A DNA stretch of 64,000 nt from Candidatus Poribacteria bacterium (GTDB taxonomy: Bacteria > Poribacteria > WGA-4E > WGA-3G): the NCBI GenBank assembly GCA_963663765.2, contig CAXXUA010000006.1, positions 384,001 through 448,000 on the forward strand, read 5' to 3'. A program made the position numbers and the translations under genes. Under the pieces are notes generated by a model. The model ran no database searches and had not been told where the DNA came from. It saw only the letters and a program-made list of their open reading frames with translations. Within the stretch, counting starts at the first letter, position 1. Each line of letters opens with the position of its first letter. Positions 16,893-36,832 of the stretch are shown one piece after another.

Positions 16893-17472
16893 CTTTTAAT
16901 CGAACCAGTTTGGAATAGAAACATAACGATCTATGCTACGCTGTAGACCCTTGGGGTAACTTTTAATCGAACCCATAGGTGTCAACATAAGAAAAAGTCA
17001 AGTGCTAAATACCCCATCCCGGTAGGCATGCTTTGTAAGTGCGCCGATAAACACAGGATTGGAAAAGGCGCGCTTACAAAGCACCAAATCAACGGTATGA
17101 ATGCTGTTTAGGCATTCCCCGCCTACCTTGAGTGAGAAAATCGGGATTTCAAGGTTTCCCTCCTATTGGCAACGGCGCGCTTACAAAGCACGCTGCAGGG
17201 GAGTGCGGGTGAGTGCGGGGCGCGCTTACAAAGCACGCCTGCAGGAGAGTGCAGTTGGGTGGCGCGCTTACAAAGCACGCCTGCAGGGGAGTGCAGTTGG
17301 GTGGCGCGCTTACAAAGCACGCCTACCTTGAGTGAGAAAATCGGGGTTTCAAGGTTTCCCTCCTACAATAATATGAATCGCTAAGTTGACACCTATGGGG
17401 TACCTTTTAATCGAACCAGTTTGGAATAGAAACGGGGATAGTTGTCAGTTGTCAGCCGTAAGCCTTTTAATC
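16893..17472 (+). CRISPR. CRISPR array fragment B (trailer end, CTTTTAAT-type repeat), interrupted by a MITE
   Basis: Full repeats at 16893 and 17404, a partial one at 16960-16973, and a degenerate terminal CTTTTAATCG at ~17464. Confidence 0.9.
16974..17397 (+). mobile_element. MITE (TIR CATAGGTGTCAAC) carrying REP repeats, flanked by a 20-bp direct repeat
   Basis: CATAGGTGTCAAC...GTTGACACCTATG; flanks GGGTAACTTTTAATCGAACC and GGGTACCTTTTAATCGAACC. Confidence 0.85.
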
Positions 17473-18222: not shown

Positions 18223-18975
18223 ATGCGCATACAAATCCTTGCGGATGTCGGTAAAGGCATCACCTTACCCATCAACTACAATCACCTGCTTGTAGGTGTA
18301 ATTTACAAGTTCCTTGCAGAATCTAACTCGGAATATGCCGATTTTCTCCACGAAGAAGGCTACCACGTTGATGCGAAACGGTTCAAACTCTTTACCTTCT
18401 CGCAACTGATGGCTGAACGCAGACATATCAACGGTGATCAGATACATTTTCGTTCTGCTTTGACGTGGTTTGTCTCCTCTCCTATTGAACAATTCCTATC
18501 GCATTTTGCGGATACACTCCTCACCGGAGGTAGACTTTCGGTTGGCAAACACGACCTCAAGATTCGGGATGTGACAATCCCGCGCGCACCGCGTTTTCGG
18601 TCGGAGATGGCGTTCCGATGCTTGTCTCCGATCGTGATGTCGGCTGTGCGTGAACACGAAGGCAAACGTGGCATGCACTACTGCTTGCCTGACGATTCTG
18701 AACTCTCCGAACTCATCCGTCAAAACCTTATCCGCAAACATCAAGCGATTTATGAACGCACACCGCAAGACGATTCGTTATCCTTCCGTTTTGATGACCG
18801 CTATATCCATAGGAAACAGGGACGCGTCACTCGGCTTGTTGATTTCAAGGGCATCAAAATACGTGGGATTTTGTGTCCGTTTCGTGTGTCTGGCAGCGTG
18901 GCATTGATTCAGACGGGTTATGAATGCGGGTTTGGGGATAAGAATAGTGCTGGTTTTGGGATGGTTGGGGTTTGA
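18223..18975 (+). CDS. cas6: CRISPR endoribonuclease Cas6
   Basis: LPINYN, FKLFTFS, LSPIV and the C-terminal glycine-rich loop GFGDKNSAGFG. Confidence 0.96.
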   Translation: MRIQILADVGKGITLPINYNHLLVGVIYKFLAESNSEYADFLHEEGYHVDAKRFKLFTFSQLMAERRHINGDQIHFRSALTWFVSSPIEQFLSHFADTLLTGGRLSVGKHDLKIRDVTIPRAPRFRSEMAFRCLSPIVMSAVREHEGKRGMHYCLPDDSELSELIRQNLIRKHQAIYERTPQDDSLSFRFDDRYIHRKQGRVTRLVDFKGIKIRGILCPFRVSGSVALIQTGYECGFGDKNSAGFGMVGV

Positions 18976-18990
18976 GAGTCACGATTTTCA

Positions 18991-19022
18991 TCTTGACAGA
19001 TATATCAAGAACCTTGTATAAT
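18991..19022 (+). promoter_or_regulatory. Promoter with an inverted-repeat operator upstream of the antitoxin-like gene
   Basis: TTGACA-18-TATAAT, with the palindrome TCTTGA-N8-TCAAGA overlapping the -35 box. Confidence 0.65.
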
Positions 19023-19067: not shown

Positions 19068-19289
19068 TTGAAATTTCAATGGGATAGTCAACATAACACA
19101 GAAATGCTTGATGAATATGATTTCAGCGAAGGTATACGAGGTAAATATGCTGAAAAATACTACGCAGTAAGAAATATGGTTAGGCTTGATGCGGATGTTG
19201 CCAAGATGTTCCCTGATACGAAATCTGTCAACGATGTTTTGCGAACGTTAGGTAAAATCATCGCAGACTATCAGAAAAAAGCATTATAG
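19068..19289 (+). CDS. BrnA-like antitoxin with a BrnT-like N-terminal stub (MKFQWD)
   Basis: EYDFS-x-G-x-RGKYA...V-x-LD-x-DVA-x-x-FP-x-x-x-SVN-x-x-LR pattern, typical of BrnT-associated antitoxins. Confidence 0.7.
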   Translation: MKFQWDSQHNTEMLDEYDFSEGIRGKYAEKYYAVRNMVRLDADVAKMFPDTKSVNDVLRTLGKIIADYQKKAL

Positions 19290-19332
19290 TCTTAAATGTC
19301 CGCGCTTCAGAGAGAAAAGCATACGTAGGTTG

Positions 19333-19472
19333 AGTTTGGAATAGAAACCTGTCTTGCTAAATTGCACGTGGTGGAAGTGTTAGTTTTAATCGCACCAGTT
19401 TGGAATAGAAATGTATATTGTTGTATAGTTTTATTAAGAACTGTAATTATCTAATCGAACCAATTTGGAATA
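19333..19472 (+). CRISPR. Degenerate two-spacer mini-array (putative crRNA-like regulatory RNA)
   Basis: Half repeat ending at 19348, repeat GTTTTAATCGCACCAGTTTGGAATAGAAAT (19383-19412), and repeat TATCTAATCGAACCAATTTGGAATA (19448-19472). Spacers are 34 and 35 nt. Confidence 0.88.
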
Positions 19473-19639
19473 TGTTAGGTTTTAGAATTAATTGGACATT
19501 ATTCGCCTGTAGGAGGGAACTCAGATTCCCGACTATCAGTGCCTTTAGTCGCGATTGGGAGATCGCTCCTACAAGTGTGGTGTATAATAATTTAAATAAT
19601 TCACGATAAACAAGAATTACGCCCAAAATAAAAAAAGAT

Positions 19640-19689
19640 TTGACATCCACTAATTATTAAGGTATAATACCAGTATATTGTTGTGTAGT
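19640..19689 (+). promoter_or_regulatory. Promoter of the cas8b-cas7-cas5-cas3 operon with the mini-array target site
   Basis: TTGACA (19640)-17 bp-TATAAT (19663), then CCA (19670-19672) and GTATATTGTTGTGTAGT. Confidence 0.85.
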
Positions 19690-19808
19690 AAGTAAAAAAT
19701 TGATAAGTTATTGACAATTTAATCCGATATGTAATAGTTTTACATGACAACCGTTATTTACTTACGTTATAATTATCTTTACATAGTCTTTTGTAGGAGG
19801 TGTTTGGA

Positions 19809-21578
19809 ATGGCAGAACAATCCACCCTTAATTTAGAAGATAATTCATCTCAATTAGTTTTAGAACTAACAGGCAATCCGTGGACAGATTTCGGCATTGT
19901 GAGTTTATGTGAAGAATTACGGATGGGTGCCCCAGATTTCTTGATTGAAGGGCCTACTTTGACAGAAAACGAGGTAACAATTACCATTAATGCTTTAGAT
20001 AAAGAGTCGGTAAAGGCTTGGTTTAATGACAGACTGAAAAGTCAGTGGAATCAGATATATTGGTTGAGCAAGGACGCAAGAATTTACAATAAGTCATTGA
20101 TGCATGACTTATCTCTAAAAACTGATACGGAAGGTTTCGTTGTTACCGACGAAAAAATACCGATTATGGAGAACCAAAAAAAGCGGATCAAGAAATTATC
20201 GCCGCAAACCCAAGTCAAAAATGAAATACGAGTTGCATCGCACCGATTGAATTTCATCGGTACGTTGGGAGAAGGAAAAACGAGAGATGTTCAAAAGATA
20301 AAAAGGGAAAAGGAAAACATTGTTCAAGCCTTCGTTGAAAATTGGATTTTACCTGAAGGTAAAAAAATATGCGAAATTTCTGGACGTGTAAGTAAGAAAT
20401 TAGAAGAGGCACATCAAGTGCTTAACCCTTTTTTGAATAAGCATCAAAACGTTAAAGTGCGCGGTTTTGGTGGAACAAACACTTACTCCAAGGTTAGCCC
20501 GATACTAAGATTTGTCAACCTTTGCACTACATTGGATCCGTCTATTCCATATATTTACAAACATCCGACAACATTTTTGATTTTACCAGAAATTGCTAAC
20601 TTATCACTTTTGACAAAGGTATATGGCTTATTGCAGATAAATCTCAAGGATATTAGTGATAAAAATGAACTTTCCACAGCAACAAACCTTCGTGGGATTC
20701 TGCGGACATCAGATGCATATTCGCTTGTAATCACATTGTTTCATAATATTTTCTACAAGTTTACAACAAAAGATGAATGGGATTTAGCCCCGTGGAAAGA
20801 ACCTGAAGAAATTCGACACCAAGTAACTCGGTGGGTGATTATTCCATTCGCGAGAGAACAAAATATCCGTTTCGGAAATTTCAATACAATAGAGGTGGAC
20901 CATAGACTTTACGATTTTATTAAACCGATTCGGTACAATGAAAACGATGACATCCGACTTGTACTGGATATCCTGAGTCGTATTAGTTTCAGTGCCGGTG
21001 GGGAAAACGCTGTTCGTTTATTAAGCAAGGCAATTGCAATCAGTGATTCCCAATTGATGAAAACTGCAATTTTTGGAATCTGGAAGCATGCTGATGCAAT
21101 CAATTTTCGTCCGCAAGAAGCTCGACCACATCCAATCAGATTATTACCACATTTCATTAGATATTTCTTGGAGGTGAATACTGTGTTAAATGATGAAATC
21201 CGTAAGGATTTACAAGAATTAGGACGCACAATTGGGTCCGTTTTTTCAAGCGATGTAACGCTGATTAGTAAACTTTACAACGTTTCAAGCGAGAACGCAC
21301 TTCGTGAATTTCTGAAGCAGTCCCAATATCGACTTTATAAAATTGGCCGGGTGGGTGAAGTAAAAGTCGATGGTTTTCTACACGCTGATGTGCAGGGTGA
21401 GAACAAGTCAATATCTAATGTCAAGGAAGAGCGAATCACACGCATATTAGATAAGTTATCTGAAGACACTAACGCTTGGAAACTGATTGCAGAGACCCTT
21501 TCAACGTTTGCAAGCCTCTACGCATTTAAGGCAAACTTTTTCAAATCTAAAAACCAAGGAGAGAAAGATAATGAATAA
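19809..21578 (+). CDS. cas8b: Type I-B large subunit (Cas8b/Cst1-like)
   Basis: Position before cas7, TGNPWTDFG motif, degenerate CEISG, and an AGGAGG RBS. Confidence 0.8.
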   Translation: MAEQSTLNLEDNSSQLVLELTGNPWTDFGIVSLCEELRMGAPDFLIEGPTLTENEVTITINALDKESVKAWFNDRLKSQWNQIYWLSKDARIYNKSLMHDLSLKTDTEGFVVTDEKIPIMENQKKRIKKLSPQTQVKNEIRVASHRLNFIGTLGEGKTRDVQKIKREKENIVQAFVENWILPEGKKICEISGRVSKKLEEAHQVLNPFLNKHQNVKVRGFGGTNTYSKVSPILRFVNLCTTLDPSIPYIYKHPTTFLILPEIANLSLLTKVYGLLQINLKDISDKNELSTATNLRGILRTSDAYSLVITLFHNIFYKFTTKDEWDLAPWKEPEEIRHQVTRWVIIPFAREQNIRFGNFNTIEVDHRLYDFIKPIRYNENDDIRLVLDILSRISFSAGGENAVRLLSKAIAISDSQLMKTAIFGIWKHADAINFRPQEARPHPIRLLPHFIRYFLEVNTVLNDEIRKDLQELGRTIGSVFSSDVTLISKLYNVSSENALREFLKQSQYRLYKIGRVGEVKVDGFLHADVQGENKSISNVKEERITRILDKLSEDTNAWKLIAETLSTFASLYAFKANFFKSKNQGEKDNE

Positions 21579-22551
21579 ACTTAAAGGTATCACTATAGTT
21601 TGGTTGAGTAAAACCGACCTGAGCAATCTCAACGCAGGTGAGGGTGGTGGCGGTAACGTTACCGAACTTAAGACTTATGACAACGGTAAACCGTATGCCT
21701 CCGGGCAGTCAGTCCGACATGCGCTCCGCGAGGCAATAGAACGTAACAATCCTGGAGTGTTCCATTGTACGCCAGAATCACCTTGCGGTGATATTGATAA
21801 TTGCTGGCTTTGCGATCTTTTTGGTTTTTTAAATCCAAAACTTGATGAAGGTTTTGACCGCAGATGGTCACCCATTAAAGCGACACCTGCTTTGGGACAG
21901 ATCGCAAGTGACATTGTTACCGATATGCTAATTCGGATGAGTGAAAAACCTAAACCGAGAACCAGAAGGGCACAAACAGAAGATGAACAAGAAAGTTCTG
22001 ACAACGAAGAACAGAGAAAGAGAGATCAGCGTATAGCGTACGTCCAAATGATGTCTAACGTATACCGTATAGGGCTTTCTCTTGACTTTGCAAACATTGG
22101 CTTCGCAAAAAAAGCCAAGTACGATGGTTCTGGTAACAAGGCTGAATTTAAAGGATGGGAAGAACTTGCTAACATTAGTTTGGACGATCGTAAAAAACGC
22201 GCTCTTGCTGTATTAGAAGCAATTGGCGGCATTGCAGATTTTGCGAAACAAGCACGAAACGCCGCATCGCTCTCACCCGATATTTTTATCGCATCAATCC
22301 ATTATCGTTATTCACACAGAACGCTTCGTGCTTTGGAGTGTGATGATAATGGCAAAGTCAGAACCGATACATTAAAGTTTATATTAAAAGATTTACAAGA
22401 CGACGGGGCAAAGTTGTTTTTTGGATTCACGCCAAGTGTGGTAGAAAATGACGACGAACTTCTTAAAACCGTTAAGGAATTCGAACTTGAACCTGTGAAT
22501 CCGATTCAGTCATTGAGAAATCTGTCGGAATTTGTTGAGAATGCAACGTAA
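21571..22551 (+). CDS. cas7: Cas7 (Cst2/DevR family)
   Basis: SNLNAGEG, PYASGQSVRHALR, DLFGF and R-x-SPIK motifs. Confidence 0.93.
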   Translation: MNKLKGITIVWLSKTDLSNLNAGEGGGGNVTELKTYDNGKPYASGQSVRHALREAIERNNPGVFHCTPESPCGDIDNCWLCDLFGFLNPKLDEGFDRRWSPIKATPALGQIASDIVTDMLIRMSEKPKPRTRRAQTEDEQESSDNEEQRKRDQRIAYVQMMSNVYRIGLSLDFANIGFAKKAKYDGSGNKAEFKGWEELANISLDDRKKRALAVLEAIGGIADFAKQARNAASLSPDIFIASIHYRYSHRTLRALECDDNGKVRTDTLKFILKDLQDDGAKLFFGFTPSVVENDDELLKTVKEFELEPVNPIQSLRNLSEFVENAT

Positions 22552-22608
22552 GAGTAAAAATCGGTTAGGGTGAATCAATTTTCACTCTAATTTCGATTGG
22601 AGATAATC

Positions 22609-23307
22609 ATGGAAAAAATTCTAACATGCGGTCTGCTTTGTCCATTCTGGACATCTTTCCGAAATCCAAGTACGGTGAATGTTCATGTAACTTATCCGTT
22701 CCCTCCGCCAACTACACTTTATGGCATGTTAAATGCAGCACGTGGTATGCCACAAGACTGGCAGGATGACCGTGATGAATGGCAGGTTTCTCTTGTTATT
22801 GAGTCAAAAGGGAAGTCAATTCAGACATTCAGCAAAATACTGAAAATCTATGAAGAAAAACGGAGTAAAGCGGATGCCGCAAAAGACGAATTTGGTAAGG
22901 CGTTATTTTATAAGATAACAGTCATGCGCCAGAAAATGATCGGTGTTGAATATAAGGCTTATTTCAAGGCACCAGAGAAACAACTTATTGAAGGACATCA
23001 AGCATTACTATCTCCACACTGGCCCCTTTACTTGGGCGAATCCGATGACCTTGTTGATGTGCTTTCACCTCGTATTATCGAAGTTGAACCAATTCCAGTA
23101 AAACGTATCCATTCAATAATCCCAGGATTAGAACATGACTGTCGGTTAGTAAAAGTCCCACACCGATTTGAAAAACAAGGTAAAAGTTGGCACGTTGAAC
23201 AACAACTCTACTCGATTCCACCTGAGAGAGGAATTCAGTTGAGTGAACCGAAATTAGCATATCCAATTGAAGGGAGGAATATAGTATTCAATGGAAATTC
23301 TTGGTAA
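22609..23307 (+). CDS. cas5: Cas5
   Basis: SFRNP, TYPFPPPTTLYGML and LYLGESDDLV motifs. Confidence 0.94.
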   Translation: MEKILTCGLLCPFWTSFRNPSTVNVHVTYPFPPPTTLYGMLNAARGMPQDWQDDRDEWQVSLVIESKGKSIQTFSKILKIYEEKRSKADAAKDEFGKALFYKITVMRQKMIGVEYKAYFKAPEKQLIEGHQALLSPHWPLYLGESDDLVDVLSPRIIEVEPIPVKRIHSIIPGLEHDCRLVKVPHRFEKQGKSWHVEQQLYSIPPERGIQLSEPKLAYPIEGRNIVFNGNSW

Positions 23308-25753
23308 ATCAAATCAAACATTGCTTGGGCATACCCGTGACTGCATGACTGTCTGTGATAGAATACTTTCCTTGCGCGAACCTTTTTTGCAGAACTTATG
23401 TGATCAATATGATTGGGATTGGGAGGAAGTGAAAGGTTGCGTTCGCTTTGCAGTTTGGTTTCATGACATCGGTAAAGCATCAAATCAGTGGCAGGAATAC
23501 ATAAAGGGAAATGGTAAATCAGTCACACACGCGCTCCCATCTTTTGCAATCGGCGCGATGAGTCTTGACATACGGGGATTTGAGAAAAGTCCAAGACTTG
23601 CTGCACTCTTCGCGATTTTAGCACATCACACGCAAATACTCCATAACGGTTCTTTTCCTGAAGAGAGATATCGGCGCAGTATTGATATACCTTTATCATA
23701 TCTTAACGAACATTTCGCAGCTTTTCGTAAAATTGAACCTAACTTCAAAATAGATGAATGGAATAAGCAGCAACTTCAGTTCAATCCTTTCTGTAAATAT
23801 TTAGACAAATTCAAAACAGAAGTACGAAATCATCCTGATTTACAATTTAAAACCCTTTATACCCTCATTCTCAACATACTAACAGCATCCGATAACTACG
23901 CAAGCAAGAATGAACCGAAAGGCGGTTCCCAAGATAAACCCCATGGTAGAAATCTTACTCTCGGGCAACTTATGCTAATCAACGATAAATTCCCGCTTTA
24001 CGACAATACGCCTCTGAAATTGTTGTCATTTTTACCAGAAGGTGCACAACCCAACAAGATGCAACAAAATATAGTAGCATCCGATTCTGACCGAATGATT
24101 CTAAACGCGGGATGTGGTGAAGGTAAAACTGCAGCAGCATTGCTTTTTGCACAAAGGTTGTTACAGGAAAATAAAATTGAAAGAATCATTCTGACACTGC
24201 CAACGAAATTCACAGCAAATAATCTATATCGGGATTTGGTTAGTCCAGATGGATACGATATTCCTGAGCAATTAGTTGGGATCGTACATGGCGATTCAGA
24301 ACAATTCCTGACGCAACTCTCAGATGATGGAAAAAAGCCGAATGAAGTTGAGAATGAGGAAAAGCAGAACGAAGCTGAGGAAACAAATGAGAATGTTAAA
24401 GCACAGGAATTTGAGAATAATTTCTATGCCAAACCTGTTACGATCTCAACAGTAGATCATTTGTTGATGAGTCTATATCACGGTTACAAATATGCCGATC
24501 GCGCATTTTTCAATATCGCCTCCTCTCTTGTAGTTTTCGATGAAGTCCACTACTATCAAGGAAAAACAACTAAAGCAATCGCAACGGCAATACGCCGCTT
24601 AACGCAGTTAAAAATCCCGCATCTTGTGATGACCGCGACGATACCAGACGCTGTGCGTGAACGTTTCAACTATCCTGAAAAATACCCATTTCAAAAAGCC
24701 CCCGCACTAATCAACGGCACATCAGACCCAAAGACTCCTTTTGAGATAGTCAAACTGAAAGAAACCCCATTGGATAAGGATAACGCTATTTCACCAGAAC
24801 TTGTGGATTTGGTCAATCAGAACCAAAATAAAAAACAAATCATCTTTGTTAACCAAGTCAACTGCGCAAAACATGTTTATCTTGCATTGAAAGATCAAGG
24901 TATCTGTGAAAACCTAATCTGCTATCATTCCGGTTTTATTGGCAAACATCGCGTTGAAAAAGAAATAATGATACGTTCACTTTTCAAGGGTTCAGATTCT
25001 TGTGTGTTGGTCTCAACTCAAGTAAGTGAACTTAGTTTGGACATCAGCGCAGATGTGATGTATTCTGAAATCGCACCGATAGACTCTATTGTACAAAGGG
25101 GTGGACGATTGCACCGAAACGGATGGAATATTGATGCACCTTGTGGATATGACCGCTGTAGAACTTGTGACCAAGATAGGGATGTAAACCATAGCACATA
25201 TCGACTCTATCTTATGCCTCCTTATGAGGACGAAAAAGCGTGTTTACCTTACGAACCTGACATCTTAGGCAAATCATGGAATGTTATTGGAGATCGTTAC
25301 ACGTTTGCTGATGCATGCAAGTGGGTAAATGAAGTATATCAAGATTGCCCAGTACTTATGCACACCGAACTTTCAAAAGCAATACACAACGATCTAATTT
25401 TTGGCAAAAAGCCACAAGACAACTATGCAGGAGAAAAAGCCGAGGAGGGAAGAGTCGTCATTCGAGAACAGAAATATCGTACTTATGATGTTGTTCCTTA
25501 TGATGAATTTGCCGAAATCGTCAAGCAGGATTATCGGGAATTCAAAAACTATCACCTGAGTATCCCGTCCTGGGCATTTTGGAAGGCTGAAAAGGGGAAC
25601 CAACTTCACCTTAAAGAGGGTAAACTTGAGATTAGAAATCCAAAGACAAAAAAGAGTACGACTCATCAAATTCCGTTTACAGTAATCCATGCGGACTATA
25701 ATTTTGATATTGGGCTTCCAGTAGGTTTAGAGAAACCTACAAACATGATATAA
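23291..25753 (+). CDS. cas3: Cas3 HD nuclease-helicase
   Basis: FHDIGKA, GCGEGKT, FDEVH, MTAT, STQVSELSLDI and QRGGRLHR motifs. Confidence 0.97.
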   Translation: MEILGKSNQTLLGHTRDCMTVCDRILSLREPFLQNLCDQYDWDWEEVKGCVRFAVWFHDIGKASNQWQEYIKGNGKSVTHALPSFAIGAMSLDIRGFEKSPRLAALFAILAHHTQILHNGSFPEERYRRSIDIPLSYLNEHFAAFRKIEPNFKIDEWNKQQLQFNPFCKYLDKFKTEVRNHPDLQFKTLYTLILNILTASDNYASKNEPKGGSQDKPHGRNLTLGQLMLINDKFPLYDNTPLKLLSFLPEGAQPNKMQQNIVASDSDRMILNAGCGEGKTAAALLFAQRLLQENKIERIILTLPTKFTANNLYRDLVSPDGYDIPEQLVGIVHGDSEQFLTQLSDDGKKPNEVENEEKQNEAEETNENVKAQEFENNFYAKPVTISTVDHLLMSLYHGYKYADRAFFNIASSLVVFDEVHYYQGKTTKAIATAIRRLTQLKIPHLVMTATIPDAVRERFNYPEKYPFQKAPALINGTSDPKTPFEIVKLKETPLDKDNAISPELVDLVNQNQNKKQIIFVNQVNCAKHVYLALKDQGICENLICYHSGFIGKHRVEKEIMIRSLFKGSDSCVLVSTQVSELSLDISADVMYSEIAPIDSIVQRGGRLHRNGWNIDAPCGYDRCRTCDQDRDVNHSTYRLYLMPPYEDEKACLPYEPDILGKSWNVIGDRYTFADACKWVNEVYQDCPVLMHTELSKAIHNDLIFGKKPQDNYAGEKAEEGRVVIREQKYRTYDVVPYDEFAEIVKQDYREFKNYHLSIPSWAFWKAEKGNQLHLKEGKLEIRNPKTKKSTTHQIPFTVIHADYNFDIGLPVGLEKPTNMI

Positions 25754-25766
25754 GGAGAACACAAAA

Positions 25767-26276
25767 ATGCAAAACCCAGAACACCCCAACATCACTGGCA
25801 CAGCCATCAACTACCTCTACATCTGCCAACGCAAACTCTGGTTCTACACACACCATCTCGAAATGGAGCATACCTCCGATAAAGTTGACCTCGGCAAACA
25901 CCTCCACGATGAGAGTTATCCACGCGAAAAACGCAGAGAATGGGATATCGACAGCCTCATCAAGATAGACTTCGTCGACAAACAAGGCATCCTCCACGAC
26001 ATCAAATTTGGCACATCAATGGAAACAGCACACATCATGCAGATATGTTACTACCTCTATCTGCTCAAACAGAAAGGCGTATCCAATAGGAAAGGCATCA
26101 TCAACTATCCCCGCCAACGGAAGACGACAGAAGTTGAACTCACACCCGAAAGAGAAGAAGAGGTGGAAGATTCTATCGCAAAGGTTAACGAAATATCAGC
26201 ACTACCTACACCTCCACACGCAGATTATATGAAAATATGTAAATCCTGCAGCTATCAAGAACTATGTTGGAGTTAA
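25767..26276 (+). CDS. cas4: Cas4
   Basis: ICQRKLW, KIDFVD, QICYY and CKSCSYQELC motifs. Confidence 0.96.
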   Translation: MQNPEHPNITGTAINYLYICQRKLWFYTHHLEMEHTSDKVDLGKHLHDESYPREKRREWDIDSLIKIDFVDKQGILHDIKFGTSMETAHIMQICYYLYLLKQKGVSNRKGIINYPRQRKTTEVELTPEREEEVEDSIAKVNEISALPTPPHADYMKICKSCSYQELCWS

Positions 26277-26286
26277 AAATATCCTA

Positions 26287-27760
26287 ATCAGGTAGGTGCG
26301 ATTTCTATACGGATTGGACTATAACAAGAAATTTAGCATTCTGTAGGTGCGATCTACGAATTATGATAGGTCGGGAATCGGAGTTCCCTCCTACAGAAGA
26401 AGGAAAGAGAAAAAATCAGGTAGGTGCGATTTCTATCCCTATTGGAATATAACAAGAGATTTAGCATTCTGTAGGAGTGATCTCCGAATTATGATAGGTC
26501 GGGAATCGGAGTTCCCTCATACAGAAGAAAGCAAGAGCCAAAATCAGGTAGGTGCGATTTCTATCCCTATTGGAATATAACAAGAGATTTAGCATTCTGT
26601 AGGAGCGATCGCCGAATTATGATAGGTCGGGAATCGGAGTTCCCTCATACAGAAGAAGGAAAGAGAAAAAATCAGGTAGGTGCGATCTCCGAATTACGAT
26701 AGGTCGGGAATCGGAGTTCCCTCATACAGAAGAAGGCAAGAGCCAAAATCAGGTAGGTGCGATTTCTATACGTTTTGGACTATAAAAAGAGAGTTAGCAT
26801 TCTGTAGGAGAGATCTCCGAATTACGATAGGTCGGGAATCGGAGTTCCCTCATACAGAAGAAAACAAGTGCCAAAATCAGGTAGGTGCGATTTCCGAATC
26901 GCGATAGGTCGGGAATCGGAGTTCCCTCATACAGAAGAAAGCAAGAGCCAAAATCAGGTAGGTGCGATTTCCGAATCACGATATGTCGGGAATCGGAGTT
27001 CCCTCCTACAGAAGAAGGCAAGTGTCAAAATCAGGTAGGTGCGATCTCCGAATCGCGATAGGTCGGGAATCGGAGTTCCCTCATACAGAAGAAAGCAAGA
27101 GTCAAAATCAGGTAGGAGCGATTTCTATACGTATTGGAATATAACAAGAGATTTAGCAGTCTGTAGGAGCGACCTCCGAATCGCGTTAGGTCGGGAATCG
27201 GAGTTCCCTCCTACAGAAGAAGCAAAGAGCCAAAATCAGGTAGGTGCGATTTCTATACGTATTGGAATATAACAAGAGATTTAGCAGTCTGTAGGAGCGA
27301 CCTCCGAATTATGATAGGTCGGGAATCGGAGTTCCCTCCTACAGAAGAAGGAAAGAGCCAAAATCAGGTAGGTGCGATTTCTATACGGATTGGACTATAA
27401 CAAGAAATTTAGCAGTCTGTAGGAGCGATCTACGAATCACGATAGGTCGGGAATCGGAGTTCCCTCCTACAGAAGAAGGAAAGAGCCAAAATCAGGTAGG
27501 TGCGATCTCCGAATCGCGATAGGTCGGGAATCGGAGTTCCCTCCTACAGAAGAAAGCAAGAGCCAAAATCAGGTAGGTGCGATCTCCGAATCGCGATAGG
27601 TCGGGAATCGGAGTTCCCTCCTACAGAAGAATGCAAGTGTCAAAATCAGGTAGGTGCGATTTCTATTGGACTATAACAAGAGATTTAGCAGTCTGTAGGA
27701 GCGACCTCCGAATCGCGTTAGGTCGGGAATCGGAGTTCCCTCCTACAGAAGAAGAAAAGA
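26287..27760 (+). repeat. Mosaic tandem REP array (77-bp and ~128-bp modules, ~14 copies) between cas4 and cas1
   Basis: Recurrent GTAGG(A/T)GCGAT...GTCGGGAATCGGAGTTCCCTC(C/A)TAC. Confidence 0.92.
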
Positions 27761-27777
27761 GTCAAAGGAGGCAAAAT

Positions 27778-28773
27778 ATGTCACGCAATTACTACATCAC
27801 GCAACCCGGCAGAATTCGCCGAAAAGATAACACTATCTACCTTGAACCCGAAGATGCCAAACGTATCCCTATACCCGTAGAAGACATAGACGCACTCTAT
27901 TTTTACGGAGAACTTGACCTCAACACCAAACTGCTCAACTTCCTCGCACAAAAGAAAATAGCCTTCCATGTGTTCAACTATTACGGCTACTATTCTGGAA
28001 GCTACTATCCGAGAGAATATCTCAACTCCGGTTCACTGCTCGTTAAACAGGTGCAGCACTATGAAAAACCGACGAAACGGATGGTAATCGCACACGAATT
28101 CGTCGCCTCCGCAGTTTTCAATATGCTCCGAATACTGCGGTATCATACCAATCGTGGCAAAGATTGCAGCACACAAATTCAAACAATAGAAACACTACTT
28201 AACGAAAGTCAAACTGCTACCAATACAAATCAGTTGATGGGATACGAAGGAACAATCCGAGACACCTACTACTCCGCTTTCAATACAATACTGGCGTTGG
28301 AAACACCTTTAGAAAGACGCGTTCGTCGTCCCCCAGACAATCCTATCAACGCCGCAATCTCATTCGGCAACTCATTGATGTATCCAGCGTGTCTCACAGA
28401 GATCTATCGGACACAACTCAACCCGACAATCAGTTTCCTGCATGAACCGGGAGAACGTCGTTTCTCGCTCAGCCTTGACCTTGCCGAAATCTTCAAACCG
28501 CTGATTATTAACAGAATCATCTTTCGTCTATTCAACCTCGGTCAGCTCAACGAATCCAAACATTTTGAAACGACCGTTGGTGCATGTTATCTGAATGAAC
28601 AAGGACGCAAAACATTTATTGCTGCTTTTGATGAACAACTCAAGCAGACCGTGTCGCACCGAACATTGAAACGGCACGTCTCATATCAGCGACTTATCAG
28701 ATTGGAGTGTTACAAACTCATCAAACATCTTGTCGGCATGGAGACGTATCAAGCACTCCGCCCGTGGTGGTAG
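27778..28773 (+). CDS. cas1: Cas1 (type I-B)
   Basis: RRKDNT, FNYYGYYSGSYYP, LMGYEG, SFLHEP and SLSLDLAEIFKP motifs. GGAGG RBS before ATG 27778. Confidence 0.97.
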   Translation: MSRNYYITQPGRIRRKDNTIYLEPEDAKRIPIPVEDIDALYFYGELDLNTKLLNFLAQKKIAFHVFNYYGYYSGSYYPREYLNSGSLLVKQVQHYEKPTKRMVIAHEFVASAVFNMLRILRYHTNRGKDCSTQIQTIETLLNESQTATNTNQLMGYEGTIRDTYYSAFNTILALETPLERRVRRPPDNPINAAISFGNSLMYPACLTEIYRTQLNPTISFLHEPGERRFSLSLDLAEIFKPLIINRIIFRLFNLGQLNESKHFETTVGACYLNEQGRKTFIAAFDEQLKQTVSHRTLKRHVSYQRLIRLECYKLIKHLVGMETYQALRPWW

Positions 28774-28814
28774 AGGCGAGATCACCTCGCCCGAAATACA
28801 AGGAGGCATTCACA

Positions 28815-29078
28815 ATGTATATCATACTCGTTTATGACATTGAGGTAAAACGTGTGGCAAAGGTATGCAAATATCTGCGTCAACATCTCAATTGGATTCA
28901 AAACTCAGTATTTGAAGGACAATTAACCAAAGCACAGTTCGCCCGCGTCAAATCGGGTTTAGCAGAGATTACCGATCCCGAAAAAGACTCTGTCATCATC
29001 TTTCAACTGCGCGATGCGAAATGGATGACCAAAGAGGTGATGGGTGTAGACAAAAATCCCGCCACAAACTTGTTATAG
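28815..29078 (+). CDS. cas2: Cas2
   Basis: ILVYDI, WIQNSVFEG and DSVIIF motifs; AGGAGG RBS. Confidence 0.97.
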   Translation: MYIILVYDIEVKRVAKVCKYLRQHLNWIQNSVFEGQLTKAQFARVKSGLAEITDPEKDSVIIFQLRDAKWMTKEVMGVDKNPATNLL

Positions 29079-29335: not shown

Positions 29336-32300
29336 CTTCTAATCGAACCAGTTTGGAATAGAAACAATGCTGCGTTGGCAGATAAGGTTATGCAGCGTAT
29401 TGATCTTCTAATCGAACCAGTTTGGAATAGAAACTAGAGATAGAAAGTCTTGCACCTGAAAAGACATCGTTTGCTTCTAATCGAACCAGTTTGGAATAGA
29501 AACGTGTAAACATCGCAGGCAGGCTACCACTACCAATAGACTTCTAATCGAACCAGTTTGGAATAGAAACTTTCACAAACAATATGAGCATACCAACCTG
29601 ACGCTTTTCTTCTAATCGAACCAGTTTGGAATAGAAACAAAATCTATAACAGTATCATAACTCAAGATCCAAGACTTCTAATCGAACCAGTTTGGAATAG
29701 AAACGTCAATATCCAAAATCAGTTCCCCATCTTCAACATACCTTCTAATCGAACCAGTTTGGAATAGAAACCTCAAACTTTGTCTCTCTTTCAGGGAAAG
29801 AGATAGTCTTCTAATCGAACCAGTTTGGAATAGAAACGTAGTTTCCATAGATTAAACCCTCTGGAATATTACTTCTAATCGAACCAGTTTGGAATAGAAA
29901 CTTAACAAATAGCGTCCCGACTCTATGTTATACAGACTTCTAATCGAACCAGTTTGGAATAGAAACTCATCAGTGGACGAAACTTCAATCGCCTTAACCT
30001 ATACTTCTAATCGAACCAGTTTGGAATAGAAACGTATGAAGAAAGTGCGCTGCAAGCAGCGCGTATCGGCTTCTAATCGAACCAGTTTGGAATAGAAACG
30101 GTGCTGCTACTGGTTTGGTAGCAGAACGTTGACTTCTAATCGAACCAGTTTGGAATAGAAACAAAACTGCCGGAGGATTAGATTTCAGAAGTGATTTAAC
30201 TTCTAATCGAACCAGTTTGGAATAGAAACACTTAACAAGGGTATATCCGTGCTTGGCAAGCTTCACTTCTAATCGAACCAGTTTGGAATAGAAACAAGCA
30301 ATTCCTATATATATTTTTACTGATGTTTTAGTCTTCTAATCGAACCAGTTTGGAATAGAAACTATCCTATAGGTCACCCGAGATGTCCAGTTATACACTT
30401 CTAATCGAACCAGTTTGGAATAGAAACGTGAGACTGAGGCTGAGGTGAAGGCTCATGATCTACCTTCTAATCGAACCAGTTTGGAATAGAAACTTGTCCG
30501 TCTTCGACACTTCCGTAAGGATTTTGCTTCTAATCGAACCAGTTTGGAATAGAAACTAAGGTTATTTCAATATAGTCATCTTACGCATTTCAGCTTCTAA
30601 TCGAACCAGTTTGGAATAGAAACAAGCCGTTGCTGCTCCCAAGTTGTGGGAAGAATTTAACCTTCTAATCGAACCAGTTTGGAATAGAAACGAAGCAAAC
30701 GATGCAGAAAAAGCACGTGTCAATACTTCTAATCGAACCAGTTTGGAATAGAAACTGCAGGACTTTCAACTCGGATGGGACAACCGAAGCAGCCTTGTAA
30801 TCGAACCAGTTTGGAATAGAAACTCAATCGTTCCTGCCTTTATCATTTCGGTGCGGATCCTTCTAATCGAACCAGTTTGGAATAGAAACCCTGCCAGAAC
30901 TTGACAGACTATTTGACGACTGGAATATACTTCTAATCGAACCAGTTTGGAATAGAAACCCTTCACAGTGCCATCCGGGCAATTCCGATACGGTTACTTC
31001 TAATCGAACCAGTTTGGAATAGAAACTGAAACGCTCAAAGACACTTATTCGGACAAGGACTATCTTCTAATCGAACCAGTTTGGAATAGAAACTTTATCA
31101 GTTAACTCTTGCTGTTCTGTGTCTGATAACCTTCTAATCGAACCAGTTTGGAATAGAAACGTTGGCAGATGTATTTGTCTGTCAACCCATACCCGCTTCT
31201 AATCGAACCAGTTTGGAATAGAAACGCTCTAATAACTCCCCAACGTCAAGCATAACGTGACCTTCTAATCGAACCAGTTTGGAATAGAAACCACGCAATC
31301 CATTCTGTTCAGACGGAACGTAACAAACCTTCTAATCGAACCAGTTTGGAATAGAAACCTGCTTGCCTTTCTCTACTTTCACATTCTTGTTTTCCTTCTA
31401 ATCGAACCAGTTTGGAATAGAAACGATTTCATCTTACTTTATCTCCTCAATTATTTCGTCCTTCTAATCGAACCAGTTTGGAATAGAAACATTTGAGATT
31501 GACTTGAATGACGGCAAGGGTGCGCGTGACTTCTAATCGAACCAGTTTGGAATAGAAACACAGACTTTGATGGCACGATTGCACGTCTAAATACTTCTTC
31601 TAATCGAACCAGTTTGGAATAGAAACTCTTTTGCTGCTTCATAATCGTTTTGAATGTCTTTACCTTCTAATCGAACCAGTTTGGAATAGAAACATAGTCA
31701 TCACGGAAGACGAACCGCGGTGGACATTACGCTTCTAATCGAACCAGTTTGGAATAGAAACACGCGCAAGGACGAAGTAGCGAATATGATCTTTGACCTT
31801 CTAATCGAACCAGTTTGGAATAGAAACCCCTGCTACTGATGACGGCACACACTGGACACAGTTTCACTTCTAATCGAACCAGTTTGGAATAGAAACATTC
31901 AATTGGGACTGAACCTAACGTATCAGCAATACTTCTAATCGAACCAGTTTGGAATAGAAACATGTTTCCTTAGATGAAATAGGCGATATGTATGGATTGC
32001 CTTCTAATCGAACCAGTTTGGAATAGAAACAAATTGACAAGTTGTTTTTTATCGCCATCATATTCTTCTTCTAATCGAACCAGTTTGGAATAGAAACTCC
32101 CCAAAGAACCGTGAGGTTCTCTGTATAAAGTCATCTTCTAATCGAACCAGTTTGGAATAGAAACATAATAGCATACATATTTAGCTCGGCTATATTTGTC
32201 TTCTAATCGAACCAGTTTGGAATAGAAACCAGATACTTTCATATTCTCTTGAAGCAACAATTTCTTCTAATCGAACCAGTTTGGAATAGAAACATCGTTT

Positions 32301-35300
32301 CACTTCACGGGTATCTAACAAGGAAATATCACTTCTAATCGAACCAGTTTGGAATAGAAACCCAATAAAAATACCGCATACTCATGTTGAGTCGCACTTC
32401 TAATCGAACCAGTTTGGAATAGAAACTTTGTTGTCTGCGACAAACGCAATGCGAGTCATGGCTTCTAATCGAACCAGTTTGGAATAGAAACATTTGTAGG
32501 AATGAATGACTGTTAAGCTAATTTCATCTTCTAATCGAACCAGTTTGGAATAGAAACCATGTCTACGAGATACCCTACAAGTTATTAGACGCCTTCTAAT
32601 CGAACCAGTTTGGAATAGAAACTTGTATATTTCAACTTCAAGGGCATAATCTTCTGTACTTCTAATCGAACCAGTTTGGAATAGAAACTATGTTGAAAAA
32701 AGGTTGATGGAGAAACTTGATGACTTCTAATCGAACCAGTTTGGAATAGAAACTCCAGTCCTACCAACCTGACAACCTTGTCTGTCAGACTTCTAATCGA
32801 ACCAGTTTGGAATAGAAACAAAGTGAGTCGGCATTGCCGTTGCTGGGATTTACCGGTAACTTCTAATCGAACCAGTTTGGAATAGAAACTATCTCTTCCT
32901 TGCCAAGCACCGTCACAGACACCAGCTTCTAATCGAACCAGTTTGGAATAGAAACCTGAGAGACAATCCTGGTGGGATAGTTCCGTTTGCCTTCTAATCG
33001 AACCAGTTTGGAATAGAAACCCTGCTGAAGTTGAGATCACTGATAGTGCAATTATGCCTTCTAATCGAACCAGTTTGGAATAGAAACTCTTACCCGTCAG
33101 CGGACTAATAGCAGACTGCACGATGCTTCTAATCGAACCAGTTTGGAATAGAAACGATATTATCGCTTGTAGCGATAAAGAGTTTTATGACTTCTAATCG
33201 AACCAGTTTGGAATAGAAACTGTCCTGTCTGGCTTTGTAAATGGCTTTTCCTGTGTCCTTCTAATCGAACCAGTTTGGAATAGAAACGGAACTTCCACAA
33301 CTCGGATGACCTCCTCAACTTTTTCTTCTAATCGAACCAGTTTGGAATAGAAACTGGAGTGCTGCATATATTGAGAAATATGGGTATGCCTTCTAATCGA
33401 ACCAGTTTGGAATAGAAACTGTAATCAGAATTATCTATCAATAAATGTGATAACTCACTTCTAATCGAACCAGTTTGGAATAGAAACTTGCGTATTTTCG
33501 GAGTATGGGTTCAAGGTTCTTGACTTCTAATCGAACCAGTTTGGAATAGAAACGAAGGAAAATGCACGAGGGCGGCGCGGTTACTTATACACTTCTAATC
33601 GAACCAGTTTGGAATAGAAACGTTGACAAGTGAAATAATATCGGCTTCGGTGCTTGGGCTTCTAATCGAACCAGTTTGGAATAGAAACTTTGGTCAGCTA
33701 TTTAGGGATGTGTATTTATTACAAGACTTCTAATCGAACCAGTTTGGAATAGAAACTTTACACAGAGTTTCATTAGAGTCTACCCTACTTTTCTTCTAAT
33801 CGAACCAGTTTGGAATAGAAACACAACTGAAATTGCCCATCTTCAATCAAACGAAACATCCTTCTAATCGAACCAGTTTGGAATAGAAACTGTCACGAGT
33901 AACTGCTAAACAGGGCGTGACTTCGGTCGCTTCTAATCGAACCAGTTTGGAATAGAAACATTTTTACGAATATGTATTTTTCGCTTGTTGGGAGGTCACT
34001 TCTAATCGAACCAGTTTGGAATAGAAACCAATTCCTCAAGTCCAAACTGAACTCCCCATAAAGTCCTTCTAATCGAACCAGTTTGGAATAGAAACGCAGT
34101 CTATTGATGTTATGTGTAGGTAGTTTTTTAACTTCTAATCGAACCAGTTTGGAATAGAAACTTTATGTTTTGCGACATAGCAAACGCTACGGCAAGTTGA
34201 CTTCTAATCGAACCAGTTTGGAATAGAAACGCTCTTGCAGGGTTTTGATTGCTTGCTTGCGTTGCTCTCTTCTAATCGAACCAGTTTGGAATAGAAACAC
34301 CAAATTGAGACGTTAGCATTCTGTCATACTTGTACTTCTAATCGAACCAGTTTGGAATAGAAACTTCTTCAATATCTGGATACGATCTATTAGCTACAAA
34401 CTTCTAATCGAACCAGTTTGGAATAGAAACGAAGTTTCTCTTTTATCTCTTCATCGGTAATACGTTTAAACTTCTAATCGAACCAGTTTGGAATAGAAAC
34501 ATTTCTATCGTTGGCTTTCATCATGTTTTCTGCATGCACTTCTAATCGAACCAGTTTGGAATAGAAACGTCGATTTGCTTTTAACAAAGCAAGCGGTTTC
34601 TGATGTTACTTCTAATCGAACCAGTTTGGAATAGAAACTTTACGGGCACGCGTCGTTGGGCAGAGGAGGACGAGGACCTTCTAATCGAACCAGTTTGGAA
34701 TAGAAACCTTGCAATCGTGGTGACTGAGGGTAATTTATTTACCTGCTTCTAATCGAACCAGTTTGGAATAGAAACATTGGTGTATTGTAGGCTTCGCAGG
34801 CGGTTTCCTCTGACTTCTAATCGAACCAGTTTGGAATAGAAACTTACTCCATAGTCAGTCTTATTAGAGTGTGAGAGGAAACTTCTAATCGAACCAGTTT
34901 GGAATAGAAACTGCCTCTGTCTACAGACACATTGAGATCGCCATCTATCTTCTAATCGAACCAGTTTGGAATAGAAACCATGTCGAGAACTGCAATATAA
35001 TAACAATTCGGATCTTGACTTCTAATCGAACCAGTTTGGAATAGAAACTTGTGGAGTTGTCCACTGCATAATTATGCGCGGTGTTCTTCTAATCGAACCA
35101 GTTTGGAATAGAAACTTCAAAAAGGAGTAAGTAAAACGATGGCAAGTCTTACTTCTAATCGAACCAGTTTGGAATAGAAACTTTCTGTATCGTGAACTGA
35201 TGGACGATCTTGATCATCAGGGCTTCTAATCGAACCAGTTTGGAATAGAAACGAGAATATGTTTTATGAGTTGACGAAGCAGAAAGGCATACTTCTAATC

Positions 35301-36832
35301 GAACCAGTTTGGAATAGAAACATGTTGGCTTCGAGTATGCTTAGACTACCGAATGCGATCTTCTAATCGAACCAGTTTGGAATAGAAACTGCAATGCTGT
35401 AGAGGTAGGTTGTCAACTTAGATTCTCTTCTAATCGAACCAGTTTGGAATAGAAACTCAGTCAACTCGTCACGTAATTTCATATTAGACTTCTAATCGAA
35501 CCAGTTTGGAATAGAAACTCTGGGGGACTCAGTAGAAGTATAAACGCCACGTCCGAACTTCTAATCGAACCAGTTTGGAATAGAAACTACAATTTACCAT
35601 TTATGAAAACATGGTAAGGATAATCCTTCTAATCGAACCAGTTTGGAATAGAAACAAGTGTGAGGTTTGTGTAAATCAACTGCCATGTGATACTTCTAAT
35701 CGAACCAGTTTGGAATAGAAACTCAAATGATGCATATTGACGTTTGCTCCTCAGATGTCTTCTAATCGAACCAGTTTGGAATAGAAACCGATTCAAGATG
35801 AATTTGAACTCCCTTATCAGTGGACTTCTAATCGAACCAGTTTGGAATAGAAACTGCTACTAATAGCATTGAAACCGGTGAGAATATCAACCTTCTAATC
35901 GAACCAGTTTGGAATAGAAACCGCATGCCATATACCCCAAAATGTGTCCCAATTTTCTTCTAATCGAACCAGTTTGGAATAGAAACTTTGCAAAAGGTCG
36001 CTATAGCATGAATCGGATACGCTTCTAATCGAACCAGTTTGGAATAGAAACCGCGGTGATACCCAAACACCGCGACGTAATGCAGCCCCACTTCTAATCG
36101 AACCAGTTTGGAATAGAAACATCGCAAAAACAACGTCATCAATCGACATCGCCAGACTTCTAATCGAACCAGTTTGGAATAGAAACTGACCAATACAGGA
36201 TTCAAGCAATTCACTTTTATACTTCTAATCGAACCAGTTTGGAATAGAAACCTCCGTAAATACTACATAACGAAACCCACCTACACTTCTAATCGAACCA
36301 GTTTGGAATAGAAACGATGAATCGGTTAATACGGCTGCTAATATCAAAACTTCTAATCGAACCAGTTTGGAATAGAAACACGTCTTAGCAAAAGCAAGAG
36401 TGGTAAAAACAATTCTTCTAATCGAACCAGTTTGGAATAGAAACTTGAAATGCCAAGAAATCAATCGTGCAAATACTAAACCTTCTAATCGAACCAGTTT
36501 GGAATAGAAACAGTAGTAGAATGTAAATGTACAAGGTAGCATATCAGCAGGGCTTCTAATCGAACCAGTTTGGAATAGAAACGTCATCTGGTGTTTCCAC
36601 TTCATGGGTACTGCACATTATGCTTCTAATCGAACCAGTTTGGAATAGAAACTCGGATGCATGTGACGCGCAGCATTAGACATACCCGACTTCTAATCGA
36701 ACCAGTTTGGAATAGAAACTTGTTTTAACATCTAAGGTCCCCCTGAAAACAGGAAACTTCTAATTGAACCAGTTTGGAATAGAAACGTCATTGTCTTCTT
36801 GATGTTGCTTAATAACTTTATATTCTTCTTAT
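29336..36832 (+). CRISPR. Main CRISPR array (repeat CTTCTAATCGAACCAGTTTGGAATAGAAAC), ~112 full repeats plus an 8-bp stub
   Basis: Manual count; ~66-bp period. The repeat ends in the ATAGAAAC handle and the leader is on the cas2 side. Confidence 0.99.

Follow-up and report, generated by a model that had tools for sequence, protein, structure and literature searches.

Small RNAs derived from degenerate CRISPR (short palindromic repeats that are clustered and regularly interspaced) units are known to regulate CRISPR-associated (cas) genes, and several systems of this class have been described. Cas-regulating RNAs (CreR) originate from degenerate mini-CRISPRs (Liu et al., bioRxiv 10.1101/2023.03.10.532045); a 15-nt match suffices for the CreR of Salmonella enterica, and in Haloarcula hispanica a short seed match allows CreA to repress the cas8 promoter 44-fold, as measured in a mutant. 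Regulatory mini-arrays are also described by Shmakov et al. (bioRxiv 10.1101/2023.03.03.530964), whose text, as far as available, reports mismatches at spacer positions 6 and 12 in subtype I-F1 and long gaps around cas6 in subtype I-B. Here we analyze a 64,000-nt stretch of DNA (the window; positions 384,001 to 448,000 of contig CAXXUA010000006.1) from a Candidatus Poribacteria sponge symbiont, corresponding to part of contig C6 of a 6.35-Mb genome designated G000, in which a repeat-spacer-repeat unit, R2-S2-psiR3, lies between the cas6 and cas8b genes of a type I-B locus. This unit is probably a degenerate mini-CRISPR of the CreR/CreA kind, guiding the locus's own Cascade effector to a promoter upstream of cas8b (P1), where it would repress transcription without cleavage. 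The mechanism class is known, and the Poribacteria type I-B case is a well-supported new example of it.

As in the CreR units, in so far as the accessible text describes them, the element consists of a repeat, a spacer and a repeat inside a cas locus, with the 5′ handle kept upstream and the 3′ handle kept downstream of the spacer. The repeat-like units were aligned against the 30-nt repeat of the arrays (CTTCTAATCGAACCAGTTTGGAATAGAAAC). R2 (19383-19412, plus strand, as are the other parts of the mini-array, P1 and the target) carries 4 mismatches and ends in GAAAT, S2 (19413-19447) is a 35-nt spacer comparable to a creR psi-spacer, and psiR3 (19448-19477) is a degenerate repeat with 8 mismatches, confirming the degenerate mini-array that a sequence-only reading of this DNA had placed between the two genes. 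The decay of the repeats is asymmetric: R2 keeps 7 of the 8 nt of the 5′ handle upstream of S2 (ATAGAAAT), and psiR3 keeps 19 of 22 nt in its 3′-handle part, followed by a destroyed 5′-handle part (3 of 8 nt). The same asymmetry is found in the related genomes G063b, G131a, G154 and G135, and because it is the pattern described for creR and creA, it was counted in favor of a CreR-like element. Direct alignment of S2 with 19673-19707 shows identity at spacer positions 1-12 and 14-17 and divergence beyond, as that reading had also proposed, which defines a protospacer-like target at 19673-19689 (16 of 17 nt identical, compared with the 15 nt of S. enterica). This target is directly preceded by CCA (19670-19672), the presumed protospacer adjacent motif (PAM), begins 5 nt after the -10 box of P1 (TTGACA at 19640-19645, a 17-nt spacing and TATAAT at 19663-19668; 12/12 in a consensus scan), covers the expected P1 transcription start and lies 136 nt from the cas8b ATG. 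The match is partial, lies at the seed end and adjoins a presumed PAM at or beside the effector operon's promoter, and no toxin gene is evident, all of which likewise agrees with CreR as described.

The same reading had described a cassette of two spacers. Two spacer-like sequences are indeed present, while the regulatory unit is R2-S2-psiR3 alone. The first half repeat, psiR1 (19319-19348), is repeat-like only in its 3′ 15 nt (19334-19348), which include a 5′ handle (ATAGAAAC), and the following S1 (19349-19382) has no CCN-flanked target: its best genome matches lack such a flank, and it was dropped as a second guide. In G016, an ordinary array begins with psiR1-S1, conserved at 91% and with S1 identical at 33 of 34 positions. 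The G000 unit itself shows no homology to the conserved leader common to the three large arrays of the genome (A1-A3), and therefore is not an acquiring array; an ordinary immune array is ruled out by this missing leader, by the degenerate terminal repeat and by a spacer that matches the host's own cas promoter. In Rfam, R2 matches CRISPR-DR2 weakly, below threshold, and the folded R2-S2-psiR3 RNA gives an uninformative z-score of -1.32.

Several features set the locus apart from the published CreR units. It belongs to an uncultured symbiont of sponges, in the Poribacteria, and combines a bacterial type I-B system with promoters of the sigma-70 type. Its target is found behind the -10 box of a distal promoter, and a second promoter, which is not targeted, is located downstream; an extra psiR1-S1 stands in front, and the Poribacteria unit is known here from its sequence alone. 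The regulatory mini-arrays of Shmakov et al., in the text available, share with it two repeat-like sequences flanking a spacer that partly matches a cas promoter next to a PAM; in their type I-B cases the mini-array is upstream of cas6 and the target before cas6, whereas in the Poribacteria locus the mini-array follows cas6 and its target precedes cas8b. The words "Poribacteria" and "sponge" have 0 occurrences in the main text of 10.1101/2023.03.03.530964, supplements lying outside that count, and no mention of Poribacteria was found among the papers listed for CRISPR type I-B and PAMs; the supplements of 10.1101/2023.03.03.530964 and 10.1101/2023.03.10.532045 might list the family.

The match between S2 and the P1 region is difficult to attribute to chance. 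Similarity was scored over 15 of the spacer positions 1-18, with every sixth position omitted, and a hit was defined as at least 14/15. By this measure, 60 ordinary spacers had a mean of 1.25 hits genome-wide, and S2 had 6 hits other than its target in 12,699,234 genome positions, the flanks recorded being TAA, TCC, TCA, TTT and TAA; a CCN flank, here CCA, occurs only at the site upstream of cas8b. Counting S2 and the target, the genome contains the 12-nt seed of S2 at 5 places. In the 331 nt between the mini-array and cas8b, about 1.6e-4 hits are expected on the plus strand before the PAM and the promoter are counted, which makes a chance match unlikely. Three look-alikes were dropped, all without promoter context: one (C15:137903) lies inside a repeat-rich coding stretch, and two (C3:170314 and C3:170381) have TCA flanks and belong to a duplicated element.

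DNA searches detected no sequence conservation of P1 or of the target among the 39 further genomes of the genus. The survey covered 85 stretches downstream of cas6, taken from 81 genomes of the order (26 loci within the genus, 59 belonging to other genera) and leaving out loci at contig edges and some further loci. Every sequence following a repeat-like unit was compared with the stretch that contained it and with sites located behind consensus promoters. This gave spacer/target pairs in G000 (14/15, CCA), G063b (14/15, TCA), G107 (15/15, CCT), G131a (14/15, CCT), G140 (15/15, CCG), G154 (14/15, CCG) and G135 (14/15, CCT), which represent seven species in two genera and four lineage groups. 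All share one order, namely repeat, spacer, repeat with a destroyed following handle, promoter, YCN and target. In six modules (G000 and five other species) the target is located 1-9 nt behind a TTGACA-16/17-TATAAT promoter; in the case of G063b, it is 14 nt behind the -10 box of TTGCAT-17-TATAAT, with the TCA PAM 11 nt behind the same box. Spacers homologous to S2, in the same register, occur in G107, G140, G154, G103, G131a, G135 and G063b. G103 and G001 have homologous spacers whose target region lies beyond the available sequence, at a contig end. As a control, 8 hits of at least 14/15 were obtained per 0.95 Mb of cognate stretches versus 3 per 3.96 Mb of non-cognate stretches; all three of the latter have CC flanks and, in view of the score matrix across groups, are probably cross-hits between homologous modules.

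Covariation of spacer and promoter in relatives had been set beforehand as a test of the autorepression proposal, and it proved positive. The spacers fall into four groups (G000; G107/G140/G154; G131a/G135; G063b) that differ from each other at 4-7 of the 15 scored positions, and each spacer matches its own target at 14-15/15 while scoring 8-12 against the targets of the other lineage groups. Compensatory changes of spacer and target are found at 8 positions: 1 (G, A or T), 3, 5, 11 (G, A, C or T), 13, 15, 16 and 17. Outside G000, the six pairs have mismatches in 16 of 18 cells at positions 6, 12 and 18 but in only 4 of the 90 cells formed by the remaining positions among 1-17; because the relatives share ancestry and cannot be treated as independent samples, these values are given as counts. 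Structures of type I Cascade have established that each sixth base of the spacer is flipped out and does not pair, and this mismatch period is the signature of an R-loop formed by such a complex. Neither shared ancestry nor duplication would spare precisely positions 6, 12 and 18.

The flanks of the modules also bear on the PAM. The sequence-only reading had anticipated CCN or CCW, and CCN precedes the target in six of the seven modules (CCA once, CCT three times and CCG twice), whereas G063b departs from this with TCA. In Clostridioides difficile, type I-B is described as relying on YCN in interference and on CCN in adaptation; this shows no more than the existence of such a PAM within the subtype. 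Judging from the module flanks, the PAM of the G000 Cascade would be YCN, or more narrowly CCN. A further observation comes from G103 (locus L127, 932-968), where the first spacer of a three-repeat mini-array consists of 37 nt of cas8b coding sequence (FVDAGVCGICEW). It is identical at 26-34 of 37 positions to 35 homologous genes and stands right after a proline codon (CCN) in 34 of these 35, which fits acquisition next to CCN; this spacer could be a second self-directed guide or could have been taken from a rival type I-B locus, and the G103 contig ends before its own cas8b.

Protospacers of the ordinary spacers were sought in several collections. No match was obtained for A2 spacers in phage records or plasmids, and A1 gave in phage records only a 34-nt match of 91-94% to Bacteroides phages, taken as chance; the arrays covered by the phage comparison were A1 and A2. 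The first 24 nt of the first spacer of each of A1, A2 and A3 (3 of 307 spacers) had 0 matches each in IMG/VR. When the 307 spacers were compared with their own genome, nothing exceeded 26/37 beyond A2 spacer 22 (30756-30793), which matches C4:209444-209476 at 36 of 38 positions with a CGC flank; this flank, not being CCN, would fit tolerance of the self-match. The 147 unique spacers from the relatives' loci yielded one partial match to G000 (28/30), lacking a match at the 5′ end.

On the basis of this arrangement, a stepwise mechanism can be proposed. R2-S2-psiR3 would most likely be transcribed together with orf73, a conserved 73-aa open reading frame (ORF; 19068-19289, plus strand), from P0, a candidate promoter (TTGACA-18-TATAAT, 12/12 in the consensus scan) located upstream of both at 18993-19022 on the plus strand, or by read-through from cas6. 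Cas6 would then cut the transcript into an RNA resembling a CRISPR RNA (crRNA), in which the 35-nt S2 stands between the 5′ handle AUAGAAAU and a 3′ handle supplied by psiR3. The effector that takes up this RNA would be the Cascade of the locus (Cas8b-Cas7-Cas5), which should be available given the complete cas gene set and the 307 spacers. Cascade is predicted to recognize CCA at 19670-19672, with S2 positions 1-17 pairing with the template strand at 19673-19689, and its presence over the P1 start site would block RNA polymerase. Since pairing ends after 17 nt, the R-loop would remain incomplete and Cas3 would not be licensed, resulting in repression instead of cleavage; a type I-B system is reportedly switched between these two outcomes by crRNA length. 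P1 would deliver less transcription into cas8b-cas7-cas5-cas3 as Cascade rises, and more whenever Cascade runs short, is inhibited or is titrated away by other crRNAs. The response to anti-CRISPRs that the earlier reading attached to this circuit would follow by analogy with the CreR literature and not from the G000 locus.

The autorepression of cas8b-cas7-cas5-cas3 claimed in that reading is supported by the conservation of the module and its covariation, and it cannot be complete, given the second promoter. P2 (ATGACA-18-TATAAT, 11/12; 19744-19773, plus strand) is the proximal cas8b promoter and, together with the cas8b leader, is conserved in relatives, including those where the mini-array is absent; its homologues include the only proximal cas8b promoter present in G014, and that of G063b. 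In G063b, a 25-nt insertion with TCA and the target lies inside the P2 homologue, directly before cas8b. The P2 of G000 has no target, and consequently Cascade at P1 can remove only the P1 share of cas8b transcription, P2 setting what would be a floor of expression. A sequence scan detected no terminator-like site between cas6 and cas8b, so that P1 transcripts should run into cas8b, and P1 is likely the stronger promoter, judging from its consensus score compared with the 11/12 and 18-nt spacing of P2.

Several points weigh against a functional repressing guide at this locus. Both P2 and a third promoter-like site (10/12 in the consensus scan; 19711-19738) lie downstream of the target and uncovered by it, so repression of cas8b would be partial and its effect may be modest. 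The G000 pairing lacks the 6/12 signature of its relatives, given that positions 6 and 12 match and the sole mismatch is at position 13. The last base of the R2 handle is T and not C, as also in G063b, G107 and G135. The region is in flux, a mobile repeat having inserted between psiR3 and P1: a dispersed element of about 130 nt, resembling a miniature inverted-repeat transposable element (approximately 19478-19610), with many copies of 78-89% identity across the genomes of the genus, is absent from the homologous modules, where the gap between the degenerate repeat and the promoter measures 4-31 nt. The distribution is patchy, with a spacer/target pair in only 7 of the 85 stretches. No protospacer of an ordinary spacer was found in the collections named above, and the PAM used in immunity is deduced from the modules. 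Finally, the contigs of two RNA runs (X1 and X3) contain 19088-19290 and parts of the dispersed repeat only; these are assembled metatranscriptome contigs with 2 differences, silent either way on the mini-array and P1.

In the sister genus, the module would govern a different first gene. In G154 (locus L103) and in G107 and G131a (loci L092 and L095), the first gene behind the target is an ORF of 121-132 aa, followed by cas8b; in G154 (L103) it occupies 710-1090 on the minus strand, a remnant is left in G135, and it is absent from G000 and G063b. No Pfam or PADLOC family was found for it, none of its 25 homologues is functionally named (one is labelled a hypothetical protein of Candidatus Poribacteria), and its AlphaFold model, with a mean pLDDT (predicted local distance difference test) of 37.4, is too poor for a fold search. 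The arrangement resembles CrePA of the type I-F system of Acinetobacter baylyi (bioRxiv 10.1101/2024.01.05.574328), in which an RNA resembling CreA is directed at the promoter of a gene for a small protein within the cas locus; CreP is there a 103-aa protein with a KilAC domain, in contrast to the Poribacteria ORF, which belongs to type I-B loci, has no such family assignment and is missing from the window. The protein is a candidate for a Cascade-repressed toxin or accessory protein, its toxicity being a guess, and its position suggests that the module may have begun as a guard of this ORF. A wider scheme, which we regard as tentative and rather doubtful, is that an ancient, diversifying type I-B cassette of guide and repressible promoter had this ORF as its ancestral cargo, a toxin of a new family in the role of CreP, and that G000 lost the cargo and re-used P1 as a surge promoter. 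If so, P1 would be silent while Cascade is intact and fire when it is depleted or blocked, atop a constitutive P2, and the seven pairs would provide pairing rules, namely a YCN PAM, freedom at positions 6, 12 and 18, and 17-24 nt of pairing tolerated without self-cleavage.

The order of genes in the sister genus also underlies an unlikely alternative, according to which the pairing is functional but a relic in G000: the module would once have guarded the small ORF, and cas8b would now be set mainly by P2, with little or no autoregulation. The absence of the ORF from G000 and the conservation of P2 in relatives are consistent with this, while the open path from P1 to cas8b and the likely greater strength of P1 are not. 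The 16 matches in 17 positions that S2 and its target still have, beside an intact CCA, speak for continued selection, and G063b, of the same genus, has the target in the proximal cas8b promoter itself. Very improbable, in our estimation, is a pair of the CreTA type, in which a small toxic RNA made from P1, within the 135 nt before cas8b, would be silenced by the S2 RNA and so create dependence on Cascade. This idea draws on the creTA of Haloarcula hispanica, which is of the same subtype and in the same cas6-cas8 gap, and whose CreA also represses the cas8 promoter; as far as the available text goes, it differs in its archaeal promoters and in a CreT RNA toxin with a divergent promoter, compared with bacterial promoters and no recognizable toxin in the window. 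CreT RNAs are described as poorly conserved and beyond similarity searching. The interval 19676-19808 contains no ribosome-binding site followed by a short ORF, no terminator-like hairpin and no Rfam family, although an RNA toxin may escape recognition by sequence, and from 19744 on it is simply the ordinary cas8b promoter and leader, common to relatives that lack the mini-array.

We hold it to be most improbable that the unit is an ordinary array in decay, with a likeness between S2 and the promoter that is coincidental or left by an old self-acquired spacer without present function. It is true that in G016 psiR1-S1-R2 forms the start of an ordinary array, that this gap contains arrays of multiple repeats in decay in several relatives, and that the mobile element has inserted beside psiR3. 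Yet the chance of the match is about 1e-4 or less, and six other species have the same architecture, with co-varying spacers and targets and a mismatch period of six bases; a single, recently transferred segment is disfavored by the divergence of the spacers between groups (4-7/15). A repressing guide of the CreR/CreA kind thus remains our preferred explanation of R2-S2-psiR3.

Public RNA and metagenome collections add some context. Eight RNA runs each contained about 0.11-0.12 of the sampled words, and orf73 is present in sponge metatranscriptome contigs with 2 differences. Run X12 contains the window exactly, together with a second contig that matches 19333-19410 (19 differences) and 19795-19889 (5 differences) and has 781 other letters in place of the 384 between the matched parts; this contig is a variant of the same gap from another strain or locus. 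A degenerate pattern of promoter, PAM and target retrieved 53 loci from JGI metagenome contigs, none with a Poribacteria-type repeat, and these were taken as chance. Phage copies of such regulatory RNAs are said to be the subject of a preprint; a pattern of handle and seed retrieved 12 loci from IMG/VR, none with the remaining repeat, and no phage-borne copy of the guide was found in that collection.

The survey also recovered arrangements of other kinds. Multi-repeat arrays occupy the cas6-cas8b gap of G005 (L064), G035 (L054), G027 (L070) and G001 (L148), with the handle GGAATCAATA or GGAATCAAAAC replacing GGAATAGAAAC and irregular spacers of 38-64 nt; in two of these genomes, G005 and G035, a conserved TTGACA...TAAAAT promoter directly adjoins the final repeat. 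In G024 (L075, approximately 2610-2710 in the orientation of cas6), a two-repeat mini-array precedes a gene with an HD domain, and its spacer matches an upstream site, flanked by AAT and on the opposite strand, at 14 of the 15 scored positions; this represents a different system.

The surrounding cas locus is complete, and its genes lie on the plus strand. cas6 (18223-18975) was identified by NCBIfam TIGR01877 (cas_cas6, E 1.8e-39), and orf73, without a family in Pfam, NCBIfam or PADLOC, shows 75-91% DNA identity in many genomes of the order and, together with psiR1-S1-R2, is 91% identical in G016. cas8b (19809-21578; ATG at 19809, AGGAGG at 19795-19800) matches PADLOC Cas8b (E 1.4e-11), with proteins of 70-84% identity in Candidatus Poribacteria records, and is followed by cas7 (21487-22551), cas5 (22597-23307), cas3 (23291-25753) and cas4 (25767-26276), assigned by NCBIfam matches, and, after cas4, by cas1 (27577-28773) and cas2 (28707-29078). 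The main array, A2, comprises 112 repeats at 29336-36786 on the plus strand with its own conserved leader, and it is one of the three large arrays that hold the 307 spacers in total. Tandem arrays of 77/128-nt units, related to the element of about 130 nt, fill 1.3 kb between cas4 and cas1 (approximately 26286-27660) and overlap the annotated start of the cas1 ORF. Upstream of cas6, the segment 15065-17433 contains an IS701-family transposase gene on the minus strand and two solitary intact repeats (16893-16922 and 17404-17433), which look like fragments of a broken array.

Taken together, the locus would extend crRNA-guided cas autoregulation to a type I-B system in bacteria, found in an uncultured phylum of sponge symbionts. 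The mechanism is supported here by natural covariation and not by experiment, spacer and target having changed together while every sixth position was left free. The pairs predict a YCN PAM and how long a pairing can be without causing self-cleavage, in the case of a Cascade inaccessible to study in its host, and the two-promoter layout, with a repressible P1 and a constitutive P2, suggests that Cas expression may combine a floor with a surge. The value of the finding lies in the family-wide covariation and in the small protein gene that, in the sister genus, would be placed under the same guide control.

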